NCBI RefSeq assembly: GCF_044324785.1
Contig: NZ_CP172129.1
DNA: 64,000 nucleotides
Reading direction: 5' to 3' (one strand)
Source of the DNA: Escherichia coli
GTDB taxonomy: Bacteria > Pseudomonadota > Gammaproteobacteria > Enterobacterales > Enterobacteriaceae
A model generated the notes under the pieces. That model was given only the letters and a program-made list of their open reading frames with translations. It had not been told where the DNA came from and ran no database searches. A program made the position numbers and the translations under genes. The stretch's first letter is position 1. Each line of letters opens with the position of its first letter. Positions 36,153-53,190 of the stretch are shown piece by piece.

Positions 36153-36247
36153 ACCTATTCCCTAATAAATGCCTAACTTAAAATGTTTGATCGTTAAGCT
36201 CACATCCTTGCCAGATATTTTTTACTGCCATTATTGTTTTTATATAA

Positions 36248-36267
36248 GAATGATAATTAATATCATT
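36248..36267. promoter_or_regulatory. Fur box in the iroN promoter
   Basis: GAATGATAATTAATATCATT, about 100 bp upstream of the iroN start, close match to the Fur consensus. Confidence 0.6.
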
Positions 36268-37006
36268 TAGCAAAAAAAAAAGCAATCCCTCACAAGATAA
36301 ATATATCGATTTTTCATAAATATCAAATTGATATATAACATATGTTTTTTATTTCATTGCACTTGTCGATCATCGGGAATTTTGTCACAATTTCTCACGG
36401 ATAGTGTTCACATTGTTTCTGACCTGCATTTCAGGCGCGGGCGCTGCTTATGTATATAAGGGCCTGTGGTCGACGAATCAGCATAATCAGATCTTCCTGC
36501 GAGCAATTTCTTTCAGCGTATCAGGCAGCACTATCGGATTATCTACGTGCGTTTTTGATTCACATTGTGTGTGAAACTTCATACATCATGATTCGCTTTC
36601 CCTACTCAGTTCTGATGATTGTTTTTTATTCTATTAACACGGAGTTAAGATTCTACCCTCGGTGTCCTCATTATTAATGAGGAATGCTACCTATCTAAAA
36701 ACTGACCGAAACTTTGGGGCATCCCTGGAGGTTTCCAAGGAGAAAAAGGTGACAGTGATAGTGCCACATTGTGAGGAAATTCCTGAGAAACTCCTGGTTC
36801 ACACACATAATTCAGGAGTTTGCCATAGATAGTAACCAATTGTTTTATATTTTAAGACCATTAAATACGCGGCTACGATAGCGCTTTATATAATCATAAA
36901 CTGTAGAGATAAAATATCTGCTTCTCTGATAACACTAATTGAGTGTCTTAAACTAAGTAATTTCATTTTTCCCCCTTTAAAAGCAATATATGTGCAATAG
37001 TTGAAG

Positions 37007-38041
37007 TTAAAGCTGTGCTGCCAGAGTTGATAATAATTGTTCTGTCTGTTGCCATGATATGCATTCATCAGTAACAGACTGACCATACTCTAGCGGAAAA
37101 CTATCGGATTGTTTTCCATCTTGTAAAAAGCTTTCCACCATAATGCCAGCTACATATCCTGGTATTTTTTTCCGATTATCTATAACTTGACGTGCAACGG
37201 AAATTTGCCGTTTAGCCACTTTACCGCTATTACCATGGCTACAATCAATTATCAGACGATGGTTAATACCCTCATCATGCATTAATTTCACTGCCTTAGT
37301 TATATCAGACAAACCATAGTTAGGTTCTCTACCTCCACGTAATATTAGATGTCCATGTGGATTGCCATCGGTTAATAGTGTAGATATACTATTTGTTAAA
37401 GATGTCATATATACAATATGTTGTTCACGGGCTGCAATAATAGCGTCAATAGCTAAGTTAATATTTCCATCAGTACTGTTTTTAAATCCAACTGGACAAT
37501 GTAAACCAGACGCAAGTTGACGATGCGTTTGTGATTCAGTGGTTCTGGCACCAATAGCACCCCAACATATTAAATCAGCAATATAGGGAGTAAGAAAAGG
37601 ATCGAGGAATTCTGTAGCGGTTGCGACACGCATCGTTGTGATTGAAGACAAACACTGGCGAGCATATCGTATCCCTTTCTCAACATCATAACTTCCATTT
37701 AGATCAGGATCGTGCATTATTCCCTTCCAGCCTTTACGGGTTCGAGGTTTCTCAAAATAAGTGCGCATTACAATGTACATTTTCGATAAGTACTTATTCT
37801 GTAATACGAACAATCGCTTCGCATAATCAACTGCGGCCTGAACGTCATGGATTGAGCATGGACCAACAATCACAAGTAAGCGAGGATCTTTTCCCAGCAA
37901 AATATTCGCTATAATATCTCGTTGCAGAGAGATCCATGTTACGGTTTCTTCCGATACTGCGATTTCTTTATGAATCTCGCCCACAGTGGGTAAACTGCCA
38001 AGCAACTTCCCGCGGTAGATTAATTTACTAGCTGACTGCAT
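37007..38041 (-). CDS. Class I 3-deoxy-7-phosphoheptulonate (DAHP) synthase, AroG/AroF/AroH-like
   Basis: 344-aa ORF with DAHP synthase I features (…LLVIVGPCSIHD…IDCSHGNS…). Confidence 0.8.
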   Translation of the reverse strand: MQSASKLIYRGKLLGSLPTVGEIHKEIAVSEETVTWISLQRDIIANILLGKDPRLLVIVGPCSIHDVQAAVDYAKRLFVLQNKYLSKMYIVMRTYFEKPRTRKGWKGIMHDPDLNGSYDVEKGIRYARQCLSSITTMRVATATEFLDPFLTPYIADLICWGAIGARTTESQTHRQLASGLHCPVGFKNSTDGNINLAIDAIIAAREQHIVYMTSLTNSISTLLTDGNPHGHLILRGGREPNYGLSDITKAVKLMHDEGINHRLIIDCSHGNSGKVAKRQISVARQVIDNRKKIPGYVAGIMVESFLQDGKQSDSFPLEYGQSVTDECISWQQTEQLLSTLAAQL

Positions 38042-38244
38042 CTTGTCTCCTAAAAGCGCTATTTCAGACCATCAGTTGCACACAGTAGATGATAATGATA
38101 ATCATTTACTGTATAATTGGCAATATATGGGGATTCATAGTCATTTCTGAGATAATATACGTTAGGCCTTCTCTCCCGTACGGAAATCACTTGTTTTCCG
38201 TAAATTACCTGAATCTTAATCCCTGAGCTGCGGCTAGCTGTGGA

Positions 38245-38582
38245 ACTCACAAAAGCTGACCGGGCCGTGGCACAGCCTCTCTGCTGGCAGAACAGCGTAC
38301 TGCAGAAGTCGTCGTACTGCCGCTGGTCCCGGCATCAGGTCTGCCCGCAGATGGCACTTCTGCCACTGATCTGCCGGTGGAGCTGAACGGCATGACATAT
38401 CAGGCCTGCCGTGGGGATTTTGTGGTGCGCCTCGACGGCAGCACCTGTCTGCAGTTATAGAATAAAGAAGGCGGGGAGGTACGCAGGGAGGGCGATCCGC
38501 TGGAAGTGGCGTAGTGGCTGTAGGCCTGTAATGATGCAGGAATAGAAGTTCGTGTACAGGTTAATGAAAGCATCACCCCGTA
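38245..38582 (+). pseudogene. Decayed copy of the 3' half of the gene at 47720-48310, with in-frame stops
   Basis: DNA aligns with 47955-48310 at high identity but carries stop codons (…CAGTTATAGAATAAA…, …GTGGCGTAGTGGCTGTAGGCC…). Confidence 0.6.
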
Positions 38583-38600
38583 AAAACATGCCGGCACGGT

Positions 38601-38909
38601 TTACACATCATTCCATGGTGGCAGCCGGTTAACTTTCCTGCGCCACCAGTGGAAAGAGGCCATGAGCAGTCCGAACAAAAAACCACTCGTGATACTTATA
38701 ATAATGGCCTCACCTGCTACCATTCCTGACGGCCCCCAGTACATAAACCACATTGCACATCCCCAGGAAATACCCCATAAGCCCCCCATCAGCAGCGTAA
38801 CCTGCCAGAACGGCATAAAGGGCAATGGCGGAAGCCGGATACCCAGCCGCCAGAGAATACGCAGCAGAGGAGGAGCATAATTACTCCGCCACATCTTTTT
38901 GCTGTCCAT
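38601..38909 (-). CDS. Small membrane protein, paralog of 48330-48587
   Basis: 102-aa ORF with hydrophobic segments; 28 aa longer than the paralog at 48330-48587. Confidence 0.45.
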   Translation of the reverse strand: MDSKKMWRSNYAPPLLRILWRLGIRLPPLPFMPFWQVTLLMGGLWGISWGCAMWFMYWGPSGMVAGEAIIISITSGFLFGLLMASFHWWRRKVNRLPPWNDV

Positions 38910-39076
38910 CAGGGCAATTGCCCGGGCTTTTTTTGCTCAAAAGTCACAGGAGCACCTCCGTTCCATGATGTAAACGTGACACAACTTATTGTTATTGATT
39001 ATTATTATCATACCGTGATTATGTTGTCATGCACCTGTACACTGATAAAAGAAAGGGAGAACAGGAGGCTGGCTGA

Positions 39077-39384
39077 ACAACCAATCCGTTCGTCCAGTTC
39101 AATGGCGGCTATCAGGTTCTGCTCCGCAATGTACTCACGAATGCGCTTCCTGTCCTGGCTGGTCAGCATGGTCCAGAATATCTCCATCATTTACCGGCGA
39201 CTTTCCTGCTCATTTCATCCCGCCATGCAGCAGCGGAAGATTCGACCATGTCATGGGGAAGCACATCGCCGCGCTCGAGTTGCTGACGTCCTGCCTCAAC
39301 CTGGTCACGGAACCAGGTATTATGCTGCCGTTCCACGGTCTGGCGCATAAAATCCCGGATTAACTGAGAGCCATTACGGTCCAT
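39077..39384 (-). pseudogene. Remnant of the ParE/RelE-type toxin and RHH antitoxin pair (toxin truncated after ~40 codons; antitoxin frameshifted at its 5' end)
   Basis: DNA aligns with 52190-52580; the toxin ORF runs into unrelated sequence; a 1-bp difference (GCAGGGCCAT versus GCAGCGGCCAT) removes the antitoxin start. Confidence 0.65.
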
Positions 39385-39742
39385 GCTTTTTGCAGGGCCA
39401 TAAAAGCATCCTTCAGTTCAGCGTCAATTCTTAAACTCATATTAACCTGTGCCATTTATCACCCCGTCATTACCACGTATATACACAGTATATAACGATT
39501 CAGATATCGTCACTAGGATATGCCGCGCCAGCGGCATGGAAGGCGGCACTCCGCTGTTTCATATGATACCGCCGAAGCCCGATGTAAGCCGCTACAGTCG
39601 TCCGAAAGTCACCAGCCTCCTCCCCCCTGCCGTCATCCGTGCATCAGCTATGCACTGAGTATGCCTGCCCTTCCCTAGAGAATCCTGCTAGGCTTGCCAC
39701 ACTGATATATCTTGACTTTATGTAAACGATATGACACTTTAA

Positions 39743-39761
39743 CATGATAATGATTACCATT
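39743..39761. promoter_or_regulatory. Fur box upstream of cvaA
   Basis: CATGATAATGATTACCATT in the cvaA promoter region. Confidence 0.5.
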
Positions 39762-40065
39762 CTCTTTTAATATACAGAGAAACTAGGAAATAGATGAATG
39801 AGTTATGTTACTTTAATATTCTCTGACAATAACCTAAATCAGTTAGATTATTGTCATTTAATAAATAATGACATTCTTTCATCATAAATAAAAAGACTAT
39901 TGTTTATAATATTGTTCTCAGCATTATATGATTATTTATCCTGATAACTCTCCTATGCTGTATGTTTATATGATTTTCCTTGAAACATATAATGCAAATT
40001 TTCGATTTATTTTCCATCATTAATCCAGATAAACAACAAACTAATAGTATGCAAGGAGACATTAT

Positions 40066-41340
40066 TTGTTTCGCCAGGATGCTTTAGAAAACAGAAAAAT
40101 GAAGTGGCAGGGACGGGCAATATTACTTCCCGGAATACCACTGTGGTTAATCATGCTGGGAAGCATTGTGTTTATTACGGCATTTCTGATGTTCATTATT
40201 GTTGGTACCTATAGCCGCCGTGTTAATGTCAGTGGTGAGGTCACAACCTGGCCAAGAGCTGTCAATATATATTCAGGTGTACAGGGATTTGTTGTCAGGC
40301 AGTTTGTTCATGAAGGGCAGTTGATAAAAAAAGGGGATCCTGTTTATCTGATTGACATCAGTAAAAGTACACGCAATGGTATTGTCACTGATAATCATCG
40401 CCGGGATATAGAAAACCAGCTGGTTCGTGTGGACAACATTATTTCCCGTCTGGAAGAAAGTAAAAAAATAACGCTAGATACCCTGGAAAAACAACGTCTG
40501 CAATACACAGATGCGTTCCGTCGCTCATCAGACATTATACAGCGTGCAGAGGAAGGGATAAAAATAATGAAAAATAATATGGAGAATTACAGATACTATC
40601 AGTCAAAAGGACTGATTAATAAAGATCAATTAACTAACCAAGTTGCATTATATTATCAACAACAAAACAACCTTCTCAGTCTGAGCGGACAAAATGAACA
40701 AAATGCCCTGCAGATAACCACTCTGGAGAGTCAGATTCAGACTCAGGCAGCAGATTTTGATAATCGTATCTATCAGATGGAACTGCAACGACTCGAATTG
40801 CAGAAAGAACTGGTTAACACTGATGTGGAAGGCGAAATCATTATCCGGGCGTTGTCTGACGGGAAAGTTGACTCCCTGAGTGTCACTGTAGGGCAAATGG
40901 TCAATACCGGAGACAGCCTTCTGCAGGTTATTCCTGAGAACATTGAAAACTATTATCTTATTCTCTGGGTCCCGAATGATGCTGTTCCTTATATTTCGGC
41001 TGGTGACAAAGTGAATATTCGTTATGAAGCCTTCCCCTCAGAAAAATTTGGGCAGTTCTCTGCTACGGTTAAAACTATATCCAGGACTCCTGCGTCAACA
41101 CAGGAAATGTTGACCTATAAGGGAGCACCTCAAAATACGCCGGGTGCCTCTGTTCCCTGGTATAAAGTCATTGCGACGCCTGAAAAGCAGATAATCAGGT
41201 ATGACGAAAAATACCTCCCTCTGGAAAATGGAATGAAAGCCGAAAGTACACTATTTCTGGAAAAAAGGCGTATTTACCAGTGGATGCTTTCTCCTTTCTA
41301 TGACATGAAACACAGTGCAACAGGACCGATCAATGACTAA
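40066..41340 (+). CDS. cvaA: CvaA, colicin V secretion membrane-fusion protein (HlyD family)
   Basis: 424-aa ORF (TTG start as in the track) with N-terminal TM and HlyD-type adaptor; precedes cvaB. Confidence 0.85.
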
Positions 41341-42109
41341 CAGGAATTTCAGACAAATTATAAATCTGCTTGATTTGCGCTGGCAACGTCGTGTTCCGGT
41401 TATTCATCAGACGGAGACCGCTGAATGTGGACTGGCCTGCCTAGCAATGATATGCGGTCATTTTGGTAAGAATATTGACCTGATATATCTTCGCCGGAAG
41501 TTTAATCTCTCTGCCCGTGGAGCAACCCTTGCAGGAATCAATGGAATAGCGGAGCAACTGGGGATGGCCACCCGGGCTCTTTCACTGGAGTTGGATGAAC
41601 TTCGAGTCCTCAAAACGCCGTGTATTCTCCACTGGGATTTCAGTCACTTCGTCGTTCTGGTCAGCGTAAAGCGTAACCGTTATGTACTGCATGATCCGGC
41701 CAGGGGCATAAGATATATCAGCCGGGAGGAAATGAGCCGATATTTTACAGGCGTTGCACTTGAGGTCTGGCCCGGAAGTGAATTCCAGTCGGAAACCCTG
41801 CAGACCCGCATAAGTCTTCGTTCACTGATTAACAGTATTTACGGTATTAAAAGAACGCTGGCGAAAATTTTCTGTCTGTCAGTTGTAATTGAAGCAATCA
41901 ATCTGCTAATGCCGGTGGGGACACAGCTGGTTATGGATCATGCTATTCCTGCGGGGGACAGAGGGCTACTGACGCTAATTTCTGCTGCTCTTATGTTTTT
42001 TATATTACTCAAAGCTGCAACGAGTACGCTGCGCGCATGGTCTTCACTGGTTATGAGCACGCTCATCAATGTACAGTGGCAGTCGGGGCTGTTCGATCAT
42101 CTTCTCAGA
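41333..42109 (+). pseudogene. cvaB: cvaB 5' portion (C39 peptidase domain and first TM segments), interrupted by IS903
   Basis: [20 protein letters not shown]…ETAECGLACLAMI… reading frame ends at the IS903 left end after …LFDHLL. Confidence 0.85.
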
Positions 42110-43166
42110 GGCTTTGTTGAATAAATCGAACTTTTGCTGAGTTGAAGGATCAGATCACGTATCTTCCCGACAACGCAGACCGTTCCGTGGCAAAGCAAAA
42201 GTTCAAAATCACCAACTGGCCCACCTACAATAAAGCCCTCATCAACCGTGGCTCCATAACTTTCTGGCTGGATGATGAAGCTATTCAGGCCTGGTATGAG
42301 TCAGCAACACCTTCTTCACGAGGCAGACCTCAGCGCTATTCTGACCTTGCCATCACTACTGTGCTGGTCATTAAACGCGTATTCAGGCTGACCCTGCGGG
42401 CTGCGCAGGGCTTTATTGATTCCATTTTTTCTCTGATGAACGTTCCGCTACGCTGCCCGGATTACAGCTGTGTCAGCAGGCGGGCAAAGTCGGTTAATGT
42501 CAGTTTCAAAACGCCCACCCGGGGTGAAATCGCACACCTGGTAATTGATTCCACCGGGCTGAAGGTCTTCGGTGAAGGCGAGTGGAAAGTCAAAAAGCAT
42601 GGCCAGGAACGCCGCCGTATCTGGCGTAAGCTGCATCTCGCCGTTGACAGTAAAACACATGAAATCATCTGCGCTGACCTGTCGCTGAACAACGTTACGG
42701 ACTCAGAGGCCTTCCCCGGGTTAATCCGGCAAACCCACCGGAAAATCAGGTCAGCCGCCGCCGATGGCGCTTACGATACCCGGCTATGTCACGATGAACT
42801 GCGGCGTAAGAAAATCAGCGCGCTTATCCCTCCCCGAAAAGGTGCGGGTTACTGGCCCGGTGAATATGCAGACCGTAACCGTGCAGTGGCTAATCAGCGA
42901 ATGACCGGGAGTAATGCGCGGTGGAAATGGACAACAGATTACAACCGTCGCTCGATAGCGGAAACGGCGATGTACCGGGTAAAACAGCTGTTCGGGGGTT
43001 CACTGACGCTGCGTGACTACGATGGTCAGGTTGCGGAGGCTATGGCCCTGGTACGAGCGCTGAACAAAATGACGAAAGCAGGTATGCCTGAAAGCGTGCG
43101 TATTGCCTGAAAACACAACCCGCTACGGGGGAGACTTACCCGAAATCTGATTTATTCAACAAAGCC
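42110..43166 (+). mobile_element. IS903 (IS5 family), 1057 bp, flanked by 9-bp target-site duplication CTTCTCAGA
   Basis: Terminal inverted repeats GGCTTTGTTGAATAAATCG… at 42110 and …TTTATTCAACAAAGCC ending at 43166; direct repeats CTTCTCAGA at 42101-42109 and 43167-43175. Confidence 0.85.
42142..43110 (+). CDS. IS903 transposase
   Basis: 322-aa ORF filling the element; DDE-type transposase. Confidence 0.8.
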   Translation: MKDQITYLPDNADRSVAKQKFKITNWPTYNKALINRGSITFWLDDEAIQAWYESATPSSRGRPQRYSDLAITTVLVIKRVFRLTLRAAQGFIDSIFSLMNVPLRCPDYSCVSRRAKSVNVSFKTPTRGEIAHLVIDSTGLKVFGEGEWKVKKHGQERRRIWRKLHLAVDSKTHEIICADLSLNNVTDSEAFPGLIRQTHRKIRSAAADGAYDTRLCHDELRRKKISALIPPRKGAGYWPGEYADRNRAVANQRMTGSNARWKWTTDYNRRSIAETAMYRVKQLFGGSLTLRDYDGQVAEAMALVRALNKMTKAGMPESVRIA

Positions 43167-44495
43167 CTTCTCAGACTACCGCTGGCGTTTTTTGAACGCC
43201 GAAAATTAGGTGATATCCAGTCACGTTTTGACTCCCTTGACACATTGAGGGCCACATTTACCACCAGTGTGATCGGGTTCATAATGGACAGCATTATGGT
43301 TGTCGGTGTTTGTGTGATGATGCTGTTATACGGAGGATATCTCACCTGGATAGTTCTCTGCTTTACCACAATTTACATTTTTATTCGTCTGGTGACATAC
43401 GGCAATTACCGACAGATATCAGAAGAATGTCTTGTCAGGGAGGCCCGTGCCGCCTCCTATTTTATGGAAACATTATATGGTATTGCCACGGTAAAAATCC
43501 AGGGGATGGTCGGAATTCGGGGGGCACACTGGCTTAATATGAAAATAGATGCGATAAATTCGGGTATTAAGCTAACCAGGATGGATTTGCTCTTCGGAGG
43601 AATAAATACCTTTGTTACCGCCTGTGATCAGATTGTAATTTTATGGCTGGGAGCAGGCCTTGTGATCGATAATCAGATGACAATAGGAATGTTTGTAGCG
43701 TTTAGTTCTTTTCGTGGGCAGTTTTCGGAAAGAGTTGCCTCTCTGACCAGTTTTCTTCTTCAGCTAAGAATAATGAGTCTGCACAATGAGCGCATTGCAG
43801 ATATTGCATTACATGAAAAGGAGGAAAAGAAACCTGAAATTGAAATCGTTGCTGATATGGGGCCAATATCCCTGGAAACCAATGGTTTAAGCTATCGTTA
43901 TGACAGTCAGTCAGCACCGATATTCAGTGCTCTGAGTTTATCTGTAGCTCCGGGGGAAAGTGTGGCTATAACTGGTGCTTCCGGTGCGGGAAAAACCACA
44001 TTAATGAAAGTACTATGTGGACTATTTGAACCTGATAGCGGGAGGGTACTGATAAATGGTATAGATATACGCCAAATTGGAATAAATAATTATCACCGGA
44101 TGATAGCCTGTGTTATGCAGGATGACCGGCTATTTTCAGGCTCAATTCGTGAAAATATCTGTGGTTTTGCAGAGGAAATGGATGAAGAGTGGATGGTAGA
44201 ATGTGCCAGAGCAAGTCATATTCATGATGTTATAATGAATATGCCAATGGGATATGAAACATTAATAGGTGAACTTGGGGAAGGTCTTTCTGGCGGTCAA
44301 AAACAGCGTATATTTATTGCACGAGCCTTATACCGGAAACCAGGAATATTATTTATGGATGAGGCAACCAGTGCTCTTGATTCAGAGAGTGAACATTTCG
44401 TGAATGTTGCCATAAAAAACATGAATATCACCAGGGTAATTATTGCACACAGAGAAACAACGTTGAGAACTGTTGATAGAGTTATTTCTATTTAA
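43167..44495 (+). pseudogene. cvaB: cvaB 3' portion (remaining TM domain and ABC ATPase)
   Basis: Frame resumes …RLPLAFFERRKLGDIQSRF… after the IS903 duplication; Walker A GASGAGKTT, signature LSGGQKQR. Confidence 0.85.
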
Positions 44496-44664
44496 ACCAT
44501 AGAGGAATTACAAGCGTATGAGGAATATTTCTTCCTGTTATAATTCCTCGTTATGCTCAGATATCTGTTGGAGGTGGAATGGAAGATAGACAATCCACCA
44601 AGAAGAAATATCATTCTGTGTGGATTGTCCAATAACTGTTCTTTCTTATATTAAATAATACTAT

Positions 44665-44976
44665 TTATAAACAAACATCACTAAGATTATTTGGACTCCA
44701 ATTACACAATCTTCCCGCAGCATAGTTCCATGCTTCTGAAGGTATCCCTTCGGGTTTTTGCTTAATTGTTCCCCCTAAACCGGATGGAGACATTGCAGGA
44801 TTAGGTTTGTGAGTGGATGCATAGTCATATATTGCACCTCCAGCCACACCCCCAGCAGCTGCTCCAATTCCTCCTGCAACAAATTGCCCGGATAGTGTTC
44901 CTATAGCCATCGCAATATCACGCCCTGAAGCACCACCAGAAACAGAATCTAATTCATTTAGAGTCAGAGTTCTCAT
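44665..44976 (-). CDS. cvaC: CvaC, colicin V (microcin V) precursor with double-glycine leader
   Basis: 103-aa ORF MRTLTLNELDSVSGGASGRD… matching CvaC. Confidence 0.9.
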   Translation of the reverse strand: MRTLTLNELDSVSGGASGRDIAMAIGTLSGQFVAGGIGAAAGGVAGGAIYDYASTHKPNPAMSPSGLGGTIKQKPEGIPSEAWNYAAGRLCNWSPNNLSDVCL

Positions 44977-45190
44977 ATGATCTCCTTTTTATCTTATCGG
45001 ATATTGAATAATAATTATCACCAACAAAGTAACATATTGCAGACATTAATGCAGAGAAGCAAAATGTATGCATGGATAAAAAGTCCTTTCCTCTAAAAAC
45101 ACAATCATATATAGCTAATGCAATATATATTGCGGTGGCATTTATTATAAATGCAAATAACAACTCTAATTTTGTTCTTTTTCTATCCAT
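44954..45190 (-). CDS. cvi: Cvi, colicin V immunity protein
   Basis: 78-aa hydrophobic ORF directly upstream of and overlapping cvaC. Confidence 0.85.
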   Translation of the reverse strand: MDRKRTKLELLFAFIINATAIYIALAIYDCVFRGKDFLSMHTFCFSALMSAICYFVGDNYYSISDKIKRRSYENSDSK

Positions 45191-45237
45191 TACTTTTTAT
45201 CCCATTACTTTCTATCCCATTACCACACAAACACTAA

Positions 45238-45256
45238 CGATAATGATTATCGTTAA
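45238..45256. promoter_or_regulatory. Fur box in the cvi-cvaC promoter
   Basis: CGATAATGATTATCGTTAA about 50 bp upstream of the cvi start. Confidence 0.6.
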
Positions 45257-45308
45257 CATAGTCAAGAGTGAAGGGTAGGAGGCCCTCAACCCCCTATAAG
45301 GGGTCCGC

Positions 45309-46128
45309 TTGGAAAACGGATTTCCCCACGTCAAGAGAATTGATTTGAACGAGTGGCTTCGCTACAAACAGCTCCCGTTTGTGTGTGAAAAACCCCTCTC
45401 AACAGATCTCAACTCTGCACGATATCTACAGGAGATTGCTCCAAAAGGCAGTATCGTGTCTTTTAACTACCGATATAACCCCGTCATCGACATGATAATG
45501 CGTCTGAGAAATGAGAAGAAATTAGGTGAACTGCATTTCTTCTCAGCAGAATTTAATAAAAATTCTGCACTGACCCGCCATCACCTGACCTGGCGAGACT
45601 CCGCACAACAGAGCAAAAGCAGCGGTGCTCTGGGCGATCTATCCTGTCATCTGCTTGATTTATTTTGTTTTATAGGGGAAAGCCCGGTAGTGGTTCATGG
45701 GATCAAAACGGTAAAGGGGACACGTGGGTACAAAATCAGATGGTCAGGTTGAAGTGGATGATAACGGCTATGTAATGGGCAGTTCAGAAAAGGGAGCTTA
45801 TTTCAGAGTTCATGCCAGTAAATCGGAAACAGATCATAATTTGGGACTGCATATACAGCTTGTATTTGAAAATGGTGAAATCAGATATTCAACCCACCAT
45901 GAAAATCGCCTGCTCCTGATTCTATTTAATGATACGAATACGGAAACAATTGGCTTCGACGCTCTGAAACGCTTGCCTGATCCACCACGGGAGCTTCCAT
46001 TCTGGTCTGATTCGTTTATTCATCTTCATGACGACTGGTGTGCTCTTATTAAATATGGTCACTCGTCTCCTAAGCTGGCGGACCTGTCATCCGGCCTTCA
46101 TATACAGGAAATAATTGAGGCATTCTGA
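45309..46128 (+). pseudogene. Gfo/Idh/MocA-family oxidoreductase remnant (lacks N-terminal Rossmann domain, internal frameshift)
   Basis: ORFs 45309-45752 and 45724-46128 in different frames; first contains the conserved EKP motif region (…FVCEKPLS…). Confidence 0.45.
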
Positions 46129-46129
46129 T

Positions 46130-46399
46130 ATGGATACCATTCTTTTAACCGGGCTGTTTGCTGCATTTTTCACAACGTTTGCGTTCGCTCCCCAGAGCAT
46201 AAAAACTATCAGGACACGCAATACCGAAGGTATCTCCGTTGTTATGTATATCATGTTCCTGACAGGTGTAATCTCATGGATAGCGTATGGCATTATGCGA
46301 TCTGATTTTGCCGTACTGATCGCCAATATTGTCACACTGTTTCTGGCTGCACCAGTGCTTGTAATAACACTTATCAACCGCAGGAAAAAACACGTATGA
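46130..46399 (+). CDS. Small membrane protein with a PQ-loop (SemiSWEET-like) motif
   Basis: About 89 aa, three hydrophobic segments and an AFAPQ motif. Confidence 0.4.
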   Translation: MDTILLTGLFAAFFTTFAFAPQSIKTIRTRNTEGISVVMYIMFLTGVISWIAYGIMRSDFAVLIANIVTLFLAAPVLVITLINRRKKHV

Positions 46400-46662
46400 A
46401 TATTGCAATCATCGGCGCGGGTCCTGCCGGCATCATTTCTGCCCGTAATGCGATTAAAGCAGGTCACTCCGTGGTTCTGTTTGAGAAGAATACCCGAATT
46501 GGGGGGATCTGGAACCCCTGGAGTGGTGGCGCTTACCGTAATGCCTGTATGCAGAACTCTCGTTATACATTTCATTATACTGGCTTTCCCCCTGGCGATA
46601 TCGATGAACGAAGTTGGATGCAAATGTCAGATCGTGTGCGCCTGTTAGGGCGCGGCTGGTAA
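46396..46662 (+). pseudogene. N-terminal fragment of an FAD/NAD(P)-binding oxidoreductase
   Basis: Dinucleotide-binding motif IAIIGAGPAG followed by premature termination at 88 aa. Confidence 0.4.
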
Positions 46663-46717
46663 GAGAGCCTTATAGGCGCATTTGAAAAACCTCCGGCTAT
46701 GCCGGAGGATATTTATT

Positions 46718-47170
46718 TCATAATATTCTGAGCAGTCTTGCCGGGTTTCCTGCATAAATGCCTTTGTTCTCAATCGGTTTTACCACAACTGAACCCGCAC
46801 CAATAACAGCTCCGCTGCATATATACGGAGACAGAATAATGGCTCCACTGCCAACAGTAACCGAATCCCCCAGGGTAATGCTGATCCAGTTATCCGGTGA
46901 CGGATCTGGTGCTCCTGAACGAAACAGATCGTTGGCGAACGTCACGTTATGACCAATGAAGCAGTTCTCCCCCAGTGTTACGTTCTCACAAATAAACGTG
47001 TGCGACTGTATCCGGCTTCCACTACCAATGACACAGCCTTTCTGTATCTCAACGAAGGGGCCGACAAACACGTTGTCCCTGAGTTCACATTCATAAATGT
47101 TGACCGGTTTGACAATACGGACATTGGTCCCATAAATCACATCCCGGACAGCACATTCCATAAATTTCAT
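46718..47170 (-). CDS. Hexapeptide-repeat (left-handed beta-helix) acyl/acetyltransferase
   Basis: Repeated [LIV]-G-x-x-x-x hexapeptide pattern through the ORF. Confidence 0.55.
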   Translation of the reverse strand: MKFMECAVRDVIYGTNVRIVKPVNIYECELRDNVFVGPFVEIQKGCVIGSGSRIQSHTFICENVTLGENCFIGHNVTFANDLFRSGAPDPSPDNWISITLGDSVTVGSGAIILSPYICSGAVIGAGSVVVKPIENKGIYAGNPARLLRIL

Positions 47171-47462
47171 ACTCACACGTCCTTTAAATACAGATGACAC
47201 TTGCCGGAATTATACAGCCCAGATTCACTTGCTATGTTTCAGAATAGCTTATAAGCCGCACTTTTACCGATACTCAGCAACAAATCAGGTCTGGATCCAC
47301 TTCAGCCGGAAACCGGATCTGCGCGGCGGGGAACGGGCATACAATATGATAATTAAGCAACTTATATAAAACCATATCTGATATTATTAATAATAAATAA
47401 CACACAAATCATGCGGGATATGATTTTTATTTGTCAGAACATTATCAGATGGAGCGTGCAGG

Positions 47463-47723
47463 ATGGATGAAGAAAGGGTGTTTTCACTCAGCTATGAACA
47501 ACTGACCCGGTTTGCGGAAAAACGCATCCGGGAATGCAATCTGGACAGCCAGGGCGTAACTTATCTCTGCGAGTCAGCCAAAGCCGGAGCTGTGCTGATC
47601 TTCTGGCATGAACTGGCCATAAATGGCTATGCCTCAATGAATGCCATAAAGAGACAGGAGATCATTGACGCCGACCATCAGCGCCTCAGAAAGCTCATCT
47701 GGCCGGAGGATGACTGGAAATGA
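47463..47723 (+). CDS. Hypothetical protein (86 aa), first gene of an overlapping two-gene unit
   Basis: ORF with ATGA stop/start overlap to the next gene. Confidence 0.4.
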   Translation: MDEERVFSLSYEQLTRFAEKRIRECNLDSQGVTYLCESAKAGAVLIFWHELAINGYASMNAIKRQEIIDADHQRLRKLIWPEDDWK

Positions 47724-48310
47724 CTCAGAGCCGCCGACCGTCGCCACTGCAGCGAAGAATGCTGATTGTGCTGGCTGCCCTTGATGAAAAACGGCCAGGA
47801 CCCGTGCTGACGCGGGACATAGAACGGGTGCTGGAGCGAAGCGGGGAAGCCCCAGTCTACGGGCCAAACCTGCGCGCCTCCTGCCGTCGTCTGGAGGATG
47901 CCGGCTGGCTGCGTACCCTGCGCGCTCCGAACCTGCAGCTGGCAGTGGAGCTGACGGACGTCGGCCGGGCCGTGGCACAGCCTCTGCTGCTGGCAGAACA
48001 GGACCGCCTCCGGGCAGAACAGCGTGCGGCAGAAGTCGTCGTACTGCCGCTGGTCCCGGCAGCAGGTCTGCCCGCAGATGGCACTTCTGCCACTGATCTG
48101 GCGGTGCAGCTGAACGGCATAACGTATCAGGCCTGCCGTGGGGATTTTGTGGTGCATCTCGACGGCAGCACCTGTCTGCAGTTATGGAATAAAGAAGGCA
48201 GGGTGGTACGCCGGGAGGGCGATCCGCTGGAAGTGGCGCAGTGGCTGCAGGCCTGTCACGATGCAGGAATGGAGGTTCGCGTACAGATAAATGAAAGTGC
48301 CGCTCCGTAA
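47720..48310 (+). CDS. Hypothetical protein (196 aa), GC-rich
   Basis: Coupled to the upstream ORF; a decayed second copy exists at 38245-38582. Confidence 0.45.
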   Translation: MTQSRRPSPLQRRMLIVLAALDEKRPGPVLTRDIERVLERSGEAPVYGPNLRASCRRLEDAGWLRTLRAPNLQLAVELTDVGRAVAQPLLLAEQDRLRAEQRAAEVVVLPLVPAAGLPADGTSATDLAVQLNGITYQACRGDFVVHLDGSTCLQLWNKEGRVVRREGDPLEVAQWLQACHDAGMEVRVQINESAAP

Positions 48311-48329
48311 GAACACGCCTGTGCACGGT

Positions 48330-48587
48330 TTACACATCATCCCATGGTGGCAGCCGGTTAACTTTCCTGCGCCCCCAGTAGATAAACCACATTGCACATC
48401 CCCAGGAAATGCCCCATAAGCCCCCCGTCAGCACCGTGACCTGCCAGAACGGCATAAAGGGTAATGGCGGAAGCCGGATACCCAGCCGCCAGAGAATACA
48501 CAGAAGAGGAGGGGCATAATTGCTCCGCCACATCTTTTTGCTGTCCATCAGGGCAATGGCCCGGGCTTTTTTCTGCTCAAAGGTCAC
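48330..48587 (-). CDS. Small membrane protein (85 aa), paralog of 38601-38909 with a 28-aa in-frame deletion
   Basis: Hydrophobic ORF; aligns with 38601-38909. Confidence 0.4.
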   Translation of the reverse strand: MTFEQKKARAIALMDSKKMWRSNYAPPLLCILWRLGIRLPPLPFMPFWQVTVLTGGLWGISWGCAMWFIYWGRRKVNRLPPWDDV

Positions 48588-48715
48588 AGGAGCACCTCCG
48601 TTCCATGATGTAAACGTGACACAGCTTATTGTTATTGATTATTATTATCATGCTGTGGTTATGTTGTCATGCATCAGTACACTGACAAAAGTGCAAAAGA
48701 AAGGAAAACAGGCAG

Positions 48716-49051
48716 ATGAACAGAAAATATTATTTTAATAATATGTGGTGGGGATGGGTGACGGGGGGATATATGCTGTATATGTCATGGGATTATGATT
48801 TTAAATACAGATTACTGTTCTGGTGTATTTCTCTCTGCGGAATGGTTTTGTATCCGGTTGCAAAATGGTATATTGAAGATACAGCTCTGAAATTTACCCG
48901 GCCTGATTTCTGGAACAGCGGTTTTTTTGCTGATACACCTGGAAAAATGGGATTGCTTGCTGTTTATACGGGTACTGTTTTCATATTATCTCTTCCGTTA
49001 AGTCTGATATATATTCTTTCTGTTATTATAAAAAGGCTGTCTGTAAGATAG
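48716..49051 (+). CDS. Colicin Ia immunity protein
   Basis: 111-aa membrane protein MNRKYYFNNMWWGWVTGGYMLYMSWDY… matching colicin Ia/Ib immunity; convergent with cia. Confidence 0.85.
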   Translation: MNRKYYFNNMWWGWVTGGYMLYMSWDYDFKYRLLFWCISLCGMVLYPVAKWYIEDTALKFTRPDFWNSGFFADTPGKMGLLAVYTGTVFILSLPLSLIYILSVIIKRLSVR

Positions 49052-49072
49052 ACAGCCTGTCTTATATTTTAT

Positions 49073-50953
49073 TTAAATACCCCAGAACTTATTCGCTTTT
49101 TCCACAAGCGATTCATCAATCAGCGCACCGGTGACAGCCATCAGTAAACCATACCCGATAATGCCTAAAGCGCTTCCGGTAAGAATACTGAAGACCAGTG
49201 CAACAAGAGCCGTTGCGGCATTGCCTGCTATAATGGCTTCTGTTTTAACAAAAAGAGGACGCCAGTTCTCTGTCCGGACACCCTTACCAAACTCAGTGAT
49301 CCAGTCAGCAAGACTTGTAAATTTTCCTGCATATCCCAGTCCCCGACTGAATCTGTTCAGATTAGACGATATATCAGACAGCTTCACTGACTCAAGGGCT
49401 GCGGCAATCGCTGCACGATCTTTTGCATTAATTTTTTTGTTAATGTCAGCCCGGTACTTTTCATACGTTTTTAATGCCTCTTCAACATTACGTATTTTCT
49501 TCCCTTTAGCCTGCCCGGCCATCTCTCTGGCTAACTGCTCAGCTTTTGCACCATATTTTTCTGAAACTGATTTCAGGAACTCTGTTGTGAAATTAATTGC
49601 GTCTTTCGTTGCCTTCAGTTCATCCTGTTTTCTTTTCTCTTCCGCTATCTTCTGATTGATGCCGGCAAGCTGGTTACGGATATTCTCTTTTTCCTTCAAC
49701 AGGGCATTAAGAGCGTCATTTGCATGCTTTTGCTCATTTGTTCTGGCACTGAGGTTATTTCTCGCAGAATTTACCGCAGATTCAGCAGAGGTGATTTTAT
49801 TTCTGGCATCAAGCAATCTTTGCCGTAACTTATCCCATTCAGCAACTTCAGCATTATAAATTTTCTTGTCACCTTCCACATCCTCTGTCACCACCGGATT
49901 CCGGTCATTCAGAATATTGCGTTTATAGTCCAGACCGGAATGGGTCAGAAGATAATTCAGGTTTGCACGGTTATCGATGACTGCGCTGGTTGTGATTTTT
50001 ATCGTACCGGCAAATCTCGGATCACCGCTCACAACAATAGAATGATTTGTTGATGAACGCCCCGGGAATTTTTCAGGGGAAACTATCGTTTTGCCGTCAA
50101 GCGTGTTTTTCTGTTGCGTCAGCTGTTGCTCAGCTCTGGTTAATGCATTACGGGCCGTGTTAAGCGATTCCGTCACTGAACTGAGTTTATTCCGGGCCTC
50201 TGAAATGGCCCTGTCATTCCGTGTCTGCTGCCCGAGCAGACGGGCCTGTTGTGCATCAAGAACGGCAAGGGCTGCCCCGCCATTTTTTTCCAGCTCTGAC
50301 AACCGCGTGTCCAGAATACCTTTTCTGCGCTCGTATTCAGCAAGCATATCAGCGGCCTTCTTGTCTGCGTTCTGCGCATCCTTCTGCCGTTTTTCAGCCT
50401 GTTCGATTAACGACCTGGCCTCCCGGGGAGATATACGAAGAGAATCAGCATCAGCAAAGAGCATCCGGCTCTCTGTATGCAGCCGGAGGGCATCATATCC
50501 GGCGATTTCAGTACGGAATCCGTATTCTCTCAGCTCTGCCTGCAGGAGTCTGAACTCCTGTCGTGTAATATCAGCGGCATCTGCGTTTCCGGCACGGAGT
50601 GTTTTCAGTGTGTTTTCATCTTTTTCCCTTGCAGCAATCGCCGCAGAGAGGCGTTTTGCGGCTTCAGTACGCTTATTCTCATTCTCTTTCTGCTGCGCGC
50701 TGAGCGTCATTTTGTACGCTGTGATTTCCTTGTCCCTTTTTTCGATATCACTTCGGGTTGGGGAATCATCGACCCACTCGTTTCCGCCCCAGATGGTTTT
50801 GTTCCCGAAGGAACTCCATGCAGGCGGGGTACCATGAAAGACATCGACACGTGGAGGGTTTACATAAATATCAACGGCCATAATTTCATGGCCATCTGAA
50901 TCATACCCCAGCGATTCTGCACCGGGATTTGTAATACGTACAGGGTCAGACAT
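49073..50953 (-). CDS. cia: Colicin Ia (pore-forming colicin)
   Basis: 626-aa ORF MSDPVRITNPGAESLGYDSDGHEIMAVDIYVNPPRVDVFHG… with long coiled coil and C-terminal hydrophobic channel domain. Confidence 0.9.
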   Translation of the reverse strand: MSDPVRITNPGAESLGYDSDGHEIMAVDIYVNPPRVDVFHGTPPAWSSFGNKTIWGGNEWVDDSPTRSDIEKRDKEITAYKMTLSAQQKENENKRTEAAKRLSAAIAAREKDENTLKTLRAGNADAADITRQEFRLLQAELREYGFRTEIAGYDALRLHTESRMLFADADSLRISPREARSLIEQAEKRQKDAQNADKKAADMLAEYERRKGILDTRLSELEKNGGAALAVLDAQQARLLGQQTRNDRAISEARNKLSSVTESLNTARNALTRAEQQLTQQKNTLDGKTIVSPEKFPGRSSTNHSIVVSGDPRFAGTIKITTSAVIDNRANLNYLLTHSGLDYKRNILNDRNPVVTEDVEGDKKIYNAEVAEWDKLRQRLLDARNKITSAESAVNSARNNLSARTNEQKHANDALNALLKEKENIRNQLAGINQKIAEEKRKQDELKATKDAINFTTEFLKSVSEKYGAKAEQLAREMAGQAKGKKIRNVEEALKTYEKYRADINKKINAKDRAAIAAALESVKLSDISSNLNRFSRGLGYAGKFTSLADWITEFGKGVRTENWRPLFVKTEAIIAGNAATALVALVFSILTGSALGIIGYGLLMAVTGALIDESLVEKANKFWGI

Positions 50954-50993
50954 TCGGTATCTCCTTCATCCGCTGAGGAAAACAAATGAATTA

Positions 50994-51024
50994 ACTGCTT
51001 ACGTATGTGGATACATATACAGTA
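50994..51024. promoter_or_regulatory. Probable SOS operator (tandem overlapping LexA boxes) in the cia promoter
   Basis: On the cia strand: TTGACA …17 nt… TACTGTATATGTATCCACATACGTAAGCAG, containing CTGT-N8-type half sites. Confidence 0.55.
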
Positions 51025-51138
51025 TTAATTTATTAAGGAGAAAATGGCATGTCAAGATTTAATGATAGTGATTATCATTAACATGAAGTGATTTTACGTC
51101 TGGATAACGTAAATGATTGCGGTATACAGGCCAGGCGG

Positions 51139-51987
51139 TCAGATTTTCAGCCGTGCCTGTTCCTGCAGCAGTTCCAGATGATATGCAGCAATAGCGTTTA
51201 CCACCCCTGCCGTCATCCGTGCGTCGGCGATCGCTGAGTGTGCCTGCCCTTCCCAGGTCAGTCCGGCCTGGCTGGCAGCACAGGCCAGTGAAATCGTGCC
51301 ATAGCGGTTGGTGGCCCCATAATATCCTGCAGCCAGCTCCATCGCACAATATACCGTCAGTTCTTCCAGCCAGTCAGCCGGATCGCTATGTGCGGCAGCA
51401 GTCTGTTTCAGAATGCGGATGTCGAACCGGGCATTAAAGATAATTACTGGTCGGTCCCCGATTGCATGACGCAGTTGCCGCGCCACATCTGTCCATGATG
51501 GTGCGCCGCAGAGAGCCTGCTCGCTGATACCATGCACAGCGGCGGCCTGCGCCCCGATGGCGACCGTGGGCTTCAGCCTGGTTTCAAATACCACCTGACC
51601 GGACGCATCGGTCAGGCCGATTTCCAGAGCTTCCGCGGTATTGTCCAGTCCTGTCGTTTCAGTATCCAGAAAGAGCGGTGCCAGACTCAGCCAGTCATAT
51701 GCCTGCCGTGCCATCCGGCCACTGGTGCTGTTAAGTCTGGATAAAACGGAAAGTCGCTGGCCAGCCAGAAGTTGTTTACTCGTCAGTGGGCGTTTCTCAC
51801 GCATCGGAACACAGTCTGCAATTCGGTATACAGCGAACCTGCCACCATAAGTGTTTTTATACCACTTAACCGGCTCAGCACCGGGGGCTGGCTTCATTCT
51901 GAATTCATCGCGCAGCCGTTCTTTCGAGAAACACCTGTCTTCGGCAATCGCCTGCGCACGTCTGGTGGCCAGCTCATCATTATTCAT
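51139..51987 (-). CDS. DnaQ-like 3'-5' exonuclease (DEDDh) domain protein with an N-terminal extension
   Basis: 282-aa ORF with Exo I motif (…LFLDTETTGLD…) and later H/D motifs (…HSAIADARMTA…). Confidence 0.6.
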   Translation of the reverse strand: MNNDELATRRAQAIAEDRCFSKERLRDEFRMKPAPGAEPVKWYKNTYGGRFAVYRIADCVPMREKRPLTSKQLLAGQRLSVLSRLNSTSGRMARQAYDWLSLAPLFLDTETTGLDNTAEALEIGLTDASGQVVFETRLKPTVAIGAQAAAVHGISEQALCGAPSWTDVARQLRHAIGDRPVIIFNARFDIRILKQTAAAHSDPADWLEELTVYCAMELAAGYYGATNRYGTISLACAASQAGLTWEGQAHSAIADARMTAGVVNAIAAYHLELLQEQARLKI

Positions 51988-52032
51988 GGTTCTTGCATCT
52001 CCGTCAGACCTTTTTATATCCGGACAGCCCCT

Positions 52033-52314
52033 CTATGGCCACTTCTGTGCAGTATGCAATACACGCAGGATATACACTTTTCCCCACTGGCTGTCGACCT
52101 CATAAACCAGAACAAAATGCGGGTGAATAACCAGTTCCCGGGTACCTTCCACACGACCGTTGCGGCCTTTATACGGCTGCCCGGCCAGGCTGCTGGCTGA
52201 ATAACCAATCCGTTCGTCCAGTTCAATGGCGGCCATCAGGTTCTGCTCCGCAATGTACTCACGAATGCGCTTCCTGTCCTGGCTGGCCAGCATGGTCCAG
52301 AATATCTCCATCAT
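52033..52314 (-). CDS. RelE/ParE-superfamily type II toxin
   Basis: 93-aa ORF overlapping the upstream antitoxin by 4 bp; ParE/RelE-like C-terminus (…HPHFVLVYEVDSQWGKVYILRVLH…). Confidence 0.65.
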   Translation of the reverse strand: MMEIFWTMLASQDRKRIREYIAEQNLMAAIELDERIGYSASSLAGQPYKGRNGRVEGTRELVIHPHFVLVYEVDSQWGKVYILRVLHTAQKWP

Positions 52315-52580
52315 TTACCGGCGACTTTCCTGCTCATTTCATCCCGCCATGCAGCAGCGGAAGATTCGACCATGTCATGGGGAAGCACATCGCCGCGCTC
52401 GAGTTGCTGACGTCCTGCCTCAACCTGGTCACGGAACCAGGTATTATGCTGCCGTTCCACGGTCTGGCGCATAAAATCCCGGATTAACTGAGAGCCATTA
52501 CGGTCCATGCTTTTTGCAGCGGCCATAAAAGCATCCTTCAGTTCAGCGTCAATTCTTAAACTCATATTAACCTGTGCCAT
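52311..52580 (-). CDS. Ribbon-helix-helix type II antitoxin
   Basis: 89-aa ORF MAQVNMSLRIDAELKDAF… upstream of the toxin. Confidence 0.6.
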   Translation of the reverse strand: MAQVNMSLRIDAELKDAFMAAAKSMDRNGSQLIRDFMRQTVERQHNTWFRDQVEAGRQQLERGDVLPHDMVESSAAAWRDEMSRKVAGK

Positions 52581-53190
52581 TTATCACCTCGTCATTACTA
52601 CGTATATACACAGTATATAACGATTCAGATATCGTCACCAGAATATGCCGCGTCAGCGGCATGGAAGGCGGCACTCTGTTGTTGCATATGACACAGGAGT
52701 AAAACCGCCGAAGCCCGGCGTAAGCCGGTACGGACTGATAGATTTCACCTTACCCATCCCCAGCCCTGCTAGGCCATATCCGCTTTCAGCCATGATAAAG
52801 CTTCTGTGCGCGGTCGGAGTGGTCCCGACGAGGGTTTACCCGAAGTCGGGGCGTATCTCCGCGTTAGCGGGCCGTCAGGGCCGCTTACGAGCGTGTACTC
52901 AATACTTTCAGCGAGAAGACTGACAGCCATGATGGAGTATAGTTACAACATTCATAATTAAAAGCGACTCTGTTCCGGCCCGAAGGGCCGGGGCGGGGCC
53001 GCTTTTCAGTTATGAGGGAGGGGCTTTGTGGTTTCAGTTCTGCGCTGGTTCGGGGTTTTTCTGGAGGTTGGTTTTGTGTGTTGTAACTAAAGTGGCTCCG
53101 GTTGGGGCCCGCCGTTTACGGTGGGAGGTGCATATCTGTCTGTCCACAGGACAGGCAGTGAATAGGTTTTCTTTTTAAATGAATGTAATT

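Follow-up and report, generated by a model that had tools for sequence, protein, structure and literature searches.

Two homologous genes of the DUF6404 family lie in the window analysed here, a stretch of 64,000 nucleotides from an Escherichia coli plasmid (contig NZ_CP172129.1), and one of them is shorter than the other by an internal block. Did the shorter gene lose that block or did the longer one gain it, what kind of event was responsible, and what is left of either gene? The source is a ColV/ColIa IncF virulence plasmid of pECOS88-type architecture, from a well-sequenced lineage, and the window carries iroN, the microcin V genes cvaA, cvaB, cvaC and cvi, and colicin Ia with its immunity gene, imm. 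The shorter gene (copy B) stands next to imm in what is referred to below as locus B; the longer one (copy A) belongs to a second, related locus A (Table 1). The answer argued for here is that copy B is very probably a slippage-deletion allele of the plasmid DUF6404 gene beside the colicin Ia immunity gene, having lost 90 bp in frame, and that the second copy, together with its locus, has decayed as well.

Table 1. Features at and around the two DUF6404 loci (positions are those of the window)
Feature	Coordinates	Strand	Description	Remarks
Copy B, DUF6404 gene	48330..48587	-	85 aa; GTG start after GGAGG; 90-bp in-frame deletion and R30C	pECOS88 WP_000142431.1, 'DUF6404 family protein'
Deletion junction	48371..48379	.	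lone retained repeat GCCCCCAGT	45-mer across junction
Proximal direct repeat	38642..38650		GCCACCAGT, as in copy A	also in IncI1 progenitor-like allele
Distal direct repeat	38732..38740		GCCCCCAGT in copy A	90 bp from the proximal one
Copy A, DUF6404 gene	38601..38947	-	347 bp from ancestral GTG to stop	102-aa ORF 38601-38909 restarts at Met14
T7 run	38928..38934	+	marks the 1-bp deletion of copy A
Fur-box-like 19-mer, locus B	48631..48649	-	GATAATAATAATCAATAAC, 16/19 to consensus	between DUF6404 and imm
Fur-box-like 19-mer, locus A	38991..39009	-	same 19-mer	upstream of copy A
ORF86	47463..47723	+	hypothetical; overlaps ORF196 start (ATGA)	locus B only
ORF196	47720..48310	+	hypothetical; convergent with copy B	intact in locus B
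Colicin Ia immunity gene (imm)	48716..49051	+	divergent from copy B	absent from locus A
Colicin Ia gene (cia)	49073..50953	-		absent from locus A
orf196 remnant, locus A	38259..38583	+	5'-truncated; 22-bp deletion; in-frame TAG at 38458, 38512 and 38521	pseudogene in pECOS88
Right flank of locus A	39066..39456	-	truncated yacB fragment and yacA	joined to DUF6404 promoter region
3-Deoxy-7-phosphoheptulonate synthase gene	37007-38041	minus	plasmid-borne

A deletion between short direct repeats

Both reading frames lie on the minus strand, and their homology, proposed in a first-pass annotation of the sequence, is borne out by the Pfam profile PF19942 (DUF6404; 115 positions, gathering score 27.6 bits), against which copy B scores 85.8 bits and copy A 108 bits, both far above the cut-off. 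Copy B covers profile positions 1-76 plus a short C-terminal tail, residues 73-102 being absent, and copy A covers positions 14-114, residues 1-13 being out of translation on account of a frameshift described below. The full-length architecture of about 115 aa is thus found in neither.

Pairwise and three-way DNA alignments place a single internal gap in copy B, and a 471-base query spanning the gene stretches over 561 bases of an IncI1 relative. (The same query is 100% identical to the E. coli plasmid NZ_CP023363.1, which has IncFIA/IncFIB/IncQ1 replicons.) An internal in-frame block is indeed missing, as the first-pass annotation had it, but the size given there, 84 bp or 28 aa, is too small: counted between the repeat starts at 38642 and 38732, the block is 90 bp, or 30 codons. 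In the same way, the deletion does end at short direct repeats, but not at the pair CCCAGT...CCCAGT that had been proposed, since CCCAGT is found in the second repeat alone and the first reads ACCAGT. In copy A and in the IncI1 allele the repeats GCCACCAGT and GCCCCCAGT are 9 bp long, agree at 8 of 9 positions and lie 90 bp apart (ACTGGTGGC and ACTGGGGGC are the coding-strand form of GCCACCAGT and GCCCCCAGT). Copy B retains a single GCCCCCAGT, so that it has the anatomy of a short-homology deletion, with a repeat at both endpoints and one repeat left. By our own arithmetic, the chance of an 8/9 match exactly at both endpoints is ~28/4^9, or roughly 1e-4. Because the retained repeat is the distal variant, the crossover is placed within the first three bases (GCC).

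The starting point would have been a progenitor gene with two 9-bp direct repeats 90 bp apart, from which slipped-strand mispairing in replication, or some other short-homology illegitimate recombination, may have removed one repeat with the intervening DNA; it is the anatomy of the junction that points this way. Deletion by this slipped-strand or short-homology process is RecA-independent. The classical deletion hotspots of lacI are deletions between short direct repeats by slipped-strand mispairing, and the DUF6404 deletion resembles them in the direct repeats at both progenitor endpoints, the one repeat left at the junction and the short distance (90 bp) between the two. It differs from them in that the repeat is imperfect (8/9) and that it is the distal variant that has been retained.

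An artefact of assembly or sequencing in the record that contains the window can be dismissed. A 45-mer that spans the junction, and of which neither half can seed a match by itself, is present in 117 independently assembled plasmids in PLSDB (101 from Escherichia and 16 from Salmonella, among them pECOS88 and the plasmid of ATCC 11775). It is likewise present in 114 of the 5,426 complete E. coli genomes, and 2,058 plasmids carry the undeleted left boundary. At least 1,000 contigs carry the exact 85-aa product and at least 1,000 the exact 102-aa product of copy A; both products have UniRef entries, and the identical junction comes from several sources.

Loss in copy B or gain in copy A

That copy B lost sequence, and that the difference in length is not due to an insertion in copy A, had been proposed from the window itself and is upheld by the relatives. 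The closest of these, the IncI1 ColIa plasmid pU12A_B (L002), carries a 348-bp gene encoding 115 aa at the same position beside imm. Its allele has both repeats, and over ~830 aligned bases locus B departs from it by the 90-bp gap and two SNPs only, one of the two being R30C. An exhaustive HMMER search recovered 702 family representatives at E <= 0.001; of the distant ones, nearly all have a length of 114-125 aa and align over residues 1-114. In a 59-sequence alignment the deleted block holds a conserved AGxLFGLxMA motif with a nearly invariant G93.

The converse reading is that the longer copy gained a 90-bp insertion, by duplication for example, and that the 85-aa form is ancestral. The one hint of it is a weak sequence resemblance between the two transmembrane segments, TM1 and TM2 (LTGG/ITGG, YWG/HWW), which could suggest an ancient internal duplication. 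Against this, the segment is contained in homologues at 30-60% identity (Klebsiella, Serratia, Xenorhabdus), in hundreds of distant clusters 114-125 aa in length, in the Pfam profile with its 115 positions and in pU12A_B, the closest relative of locus B at a distance of two SNPs. An insertion is extremely improbable, and the difference is treated as a deletion in what follows.

Deposited records do not give the gene one name. Some IncI1 and IncF records label it ybaA, and in one the deleted allele is ybaA_2; in another deposited record the two names under the match are ybaA and ydeA.

The second copy is frameshifted

It is tempting to see in the two loci reciprocal lesions that leave one good part in each, with copy A as the full-length gene; so the first-pass annotation had described them. 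Copy A does not fit that description. Compared with copy B and the IncI1 allele, its codon 5 has a 1-bp deletion (GAG CAG AAA AAA GCC has become GAGCAAAAAAAGCC). The ancestral GTG, at 38947, has GGAGG seven bases upstream, and the shifted frame stops after 12 codons at a TGA (38911-38909). This TGA overlaps the ATG of Met14 at 38909-38907 (TGATG), and no Shine-Dalgarno sequence precedes that ATG. The 102-aa reading frame thus represents an internal Met14 start of the 115-aa ancestral protein, and its product would be possible only by reinitiation at Met14 through the TGATG overlap. The intact 115-aa counterpart of the copy A allele (P0136) is found on about 1,000 contigs.

The prevalence given above for the copy A allele is based on exact-protein look-ups; a 45-mer for the frameshift allele gave no match, and the T7 run is suspected of having been masked by the low-complexity filter. 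In the RefSeq record of pECOS88 both DUF6404 reading frames are listed as ordinary CDS. Both copies are damaged all the same, and the window is without any intact DUF6404 gene.

What the deletion does to the protein

An AlphaFold2 model of the 115-aa form, made on the 59-sequence alignment, has a mean pLDDT of 97 and helices at residues 3-16, 21-24, 27-34, 47-71 and 78-106. The layout is that of a positively charged N-terminal helix and short interfacial helices, followed by TM1 (47-71), a six-residue turn, TM2 (78-106) and a tail. There are nine Lys/Arg before TM1, the turn (72-77) is uncharged and the tail begins RRKVNR. Because of this distribution of charge (the positive-inside rule) the protein is read as a hairpin whose two ends would face the cytoplasm. 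A Foldseek search of the model against the PDB found nothing at E below 3, and rows for ExbB/TolQ and AhlB were set aside as noise.

Residues 73-102, the ones absent from copy B, make up the turn and almost all of TM2, including AGxLFGLxMA, and their loss fuses TM1 to the charged tail. The two-helix hairpin with its motif is retained by copy A and lost from copy B. Judged by the model, the 85-aa product would be unable to form the hairpin or the family fold, and it is most likely non-functional.

Could the 85-aa single-helix product nevertheless be a functional, selected variant that has taken on a new function or modulates full-length DUF6404 proteins in a dominant way? Its allele keeps the start codon, the ribosome-binding site, a promoter-like site and an open frame, and RefSeq annotates it in pECOS88 as a normal CDS, not as a pseudogene. 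The deletion is in frame, and the allele is widespread, on several haplotypes and in several contexts that include IncI1 ColIb-type plasmids. The in-frame status, however, follows automatically from a repeat spacing of 90 bp. Two SNPs separate the allele from its progenitor, R30C being a non-synonymous one, and at so young an age the absence of further decay says little. In addition, the conserved motif and an entire transmembrane helix are gone, and the many other truncations and frameshifts of the same gene in public data fit dispensability. A selected variant is accordingly improbable, and loss of function is the preferred reading of the 85-aa allele.

One deletion or several

The deletion may have happened once, as an old allele since spread by descent and recombination, or it may be a recurrent hotspot event with several independent origins at the same repeats. 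Short repeats abound in the gene (22 pairs of near-identical 9-mers, where shuffles give 7.5 +/- 4.1) and other slippage alleles of it exist: in-frame deletions of 3, 14, 25, 33 and 34 aa are found in public data, and the endpoints of the 33-aa deletion (P0036) coincide with a second repeat pair 99 bp apart. The 90-bp junction occurs on at least three haplotypes, one with C30/T54 and two with R30/M54 (the latter protein is P0127) that are told apart by CTC and CTA. Its left flank varies too, being an Ia-type imm in some cases, an Ib-type imm of 115 aa in an IncI1 ColIb-type plasmid with impCAB, and on one contig a sequence with no colicin genes. The window allele, for its part, is otherwise identical to a full-length T54 allele. 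All of this speaks for recurrence, but a single deletion allele could have come by its different flanks and SNPs just as well through homologous recombination between IncI1 and IncF plasmids that share a host. Recurrence is to be taken seriously, and we are inclined to doubt it.

Two versions of one colicin module

The genes of locus B stand in the canonical order of the IncI1 type: yacA, yacB, exonuclease, cia, imm, DUF6404, orf196, orf86. The exonuclease is a neighbouring 282-aa gene of the DEDDh type. Apart from copy B the locus is intact, as originally claimed, ORF86, ORF196, imm and cia having the lengths of their IncI1 and pECOS88 relatives save for one extra codon in ORF86. ORF86 and ORF196 overlap at ATGA and are translationally coupled. 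Neither has been assigned to a family, and both are conserved beside DUF6404 in IncI1 and ColV plasmids.

Locus A is missing ~3.5 kb that comprises imm, cia, the DEDDh exonuclease and the 3' end of yacB; orf86 is absent as well. At the junction (39036-39100), which lies close to a short similarity of CAGG, the DUF6404 promoter region is followed directly by the 5' part of yacB. The yacA gene of locus A has a 1-bp deletion near 39396 (GCAGCGGCC to GCAGGGCC) that is shared with NZ_CP023363.1 and is not in pECOS88; yacA is an antitoxin gene, and the toxin gene adjoining it is already truncated. The orf196 remnant has three in-frame TAG codons inside 66 bp, and between CTGCTGGCAGAACAG-like repeats it has lost 22 bp. 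Its differences from the locus B gene include 19 G>A against 6 A>G, an unpolarised count. Targeted mutation was entertained for the three TAGs and rejected: on a rough estimate ~1.4 stop-creating changes are expected from ~30 substitutions, and three are unremarkable. In the RefSeq record of pECOS88 the locus A remnants of orf196 and yacB are marked as pseudogenes. With these losses and stops, and with lesions in both DUF6404 copies, it is correct that locus A is decayed and that neither locus is ancestral. Locus A is a colicin-less relic of the colicin Ia/Ib module.

How did two such loci come to lie in one plasmid? The first-pass annotation implied a recent duplication, and that part of it does not survive the comparison. 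Of about 830 sites in the alignment of A with B, 57 (~7%) are different, dS between A-type and B-type DUF6404 alleles is about 0.15, and each allele has an intact counterpart on other plasmids. The two loci are better read, from these sequences, as separately inherited, divergent versions of one IncI1-type module. With a dS of 0.15, the dN/dS of 0.22 between the two allele types argues that the gene was under purifying selection before it acquired its lesions.

The arrangement is an established one. In both loci the identity to pECOS88 (NC_011747.1), a neonatal-meningitis plasmid, is 99.7% or higher. The two-locus layout of the window recurs in pECOS88 and in related ColV/ColIa IncF virulence plasmids from Salmonella and from E. 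coli that is extra-intestinal or avian pathogenic. The 90-bp deletion allele is common to pECOS88 and the window, as is the frameshifted A allele (WP_000269327.1). In contrast, the 1-bp deletion in the yacA gene of locus A and an insertion sequence within cvaB distinguish the window plasmid; neither is in pECOS88. A 322-aa transposase ORF (42142-43110) splits cvaB, which is intact in pECOS88, into 41315-42124 and 43245-44495, and microcin V export is probably disabled in the window plasmid by this interruption.

A separate observation concerns the plasmid-borne 3-deoxy-7-phosphoheptulonate synthase gene, which has a near-consensus Fur box with two mismatches (38091-38109) directly upstream of its start codon (38041). 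The box suggests an iron-regulated supply of aromatic precursors beside the iro genes. An Rfam scan of 36000-53000 yielded no RNA family.

Function and regulation of DUF6404

We know of no role for DUF6404 in colicin production, release or immunity, and a literature search for DUF6404 found no papers. PADLOC and NCBIfam scans of DUF6404, ORF196 and ORF86 gave nothing meaningful; ORF196 drew a sub-threshold match to AbiEi_4 (a winged-helix family in Pfam) and JetA rows in PADLOC, both of which were discarded. The gene neighbourhoods of six DUF6404 homologues have no conserved partner. The contexts of homologues include a Klebsiella chromosome and a Xenorhabdus prophage, both without colicin genes, and assorted metagenomic contigs.

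In the Xenorhabdus prophage (L008:4096-6116) the DUF6404 homologue lies between, on the one side, genes for an SLT-domain protein (an injection-type transglycosylase) and an Mrr-like nuclease and, on the other, arc/ant-type immunity genes. This position is the one at which P22-like phages carry the superinfection-exclusion gene sieA. In two metagenomic contigs (L016:244-877 and L017:180-813) an ORF of 98 aa, for which Pfam has no match, shares 11 bp with the start of a DUF6404 gene that is 44% identical. That ORF could be a partner gene of DUF6404, and the plasmid loci appear to have no such partner.

Two divergent promoter-like sites lie between DUF6404 and imm; the Fur-box-like 19-mer of locus B overlaps the -10 hexamer of each and is conserved in IncI1 relatives. 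In the window as a whole there are 13 Fur-like matches, against 0.03 expected. A better Fur-box match, with two mismatches, lies at 51064-51082, ~110 bp upstream of the colicin Ia start codon. Colicin Ib is under Fur and LexA control (PMC3879352), and the box at 51064-51082 fits the published regulation of the IncI1 colicin Ia/Ib module (PMC3879352). In IncI1 plasmids, as in locus B, DUF6404 is divergent beside imm. In contrast with the regulation described for that module, the Fur-like box between imm and DUF6404 is a consensus match only, and iron regulation of DUF6404 would at this point be a lead, not a finding.

A more ambitious account can be put together from these elements. DUF6404 would be an accessory membrane protein that belongs to the colicin Ia/Ib module and is controlled by Fur, its inactivation time and again through frameshifts, truncations and slippage at unusually dense internal repeats would reflect selection against the gene in particular host or plasmid backgrounds, the 90-bp deletion would be recurrent, and the sieA-like position in the prophage would fit a function in entry exclusion. 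We give this account little credence, and return to the plainer one, of decay by slippage deletion.

Meaning for the plasmid lineage

The lesion in copy B is genuine but it is ordinary decay of a known type, already in the databases many times over. The repeated loss of the gene is of interest only if a role of DUF6404 in colicin biology or entry exclusion should prove true. There are practical consequences nonetheless. The 85-aa and 97/102-aa 'DUF6404 family proteins' that RefSeq lists for ColV/ColIa plasmids are damaged derivatives of a 115-aa gene, and the 45-mer across the deletion junction is a convenient lineage marker for this group of plasmids. The plasmid lineage appears not to need an intact DUF6404 gene: it is without an intact copy, which argues that DUF6404 is dispensable there.
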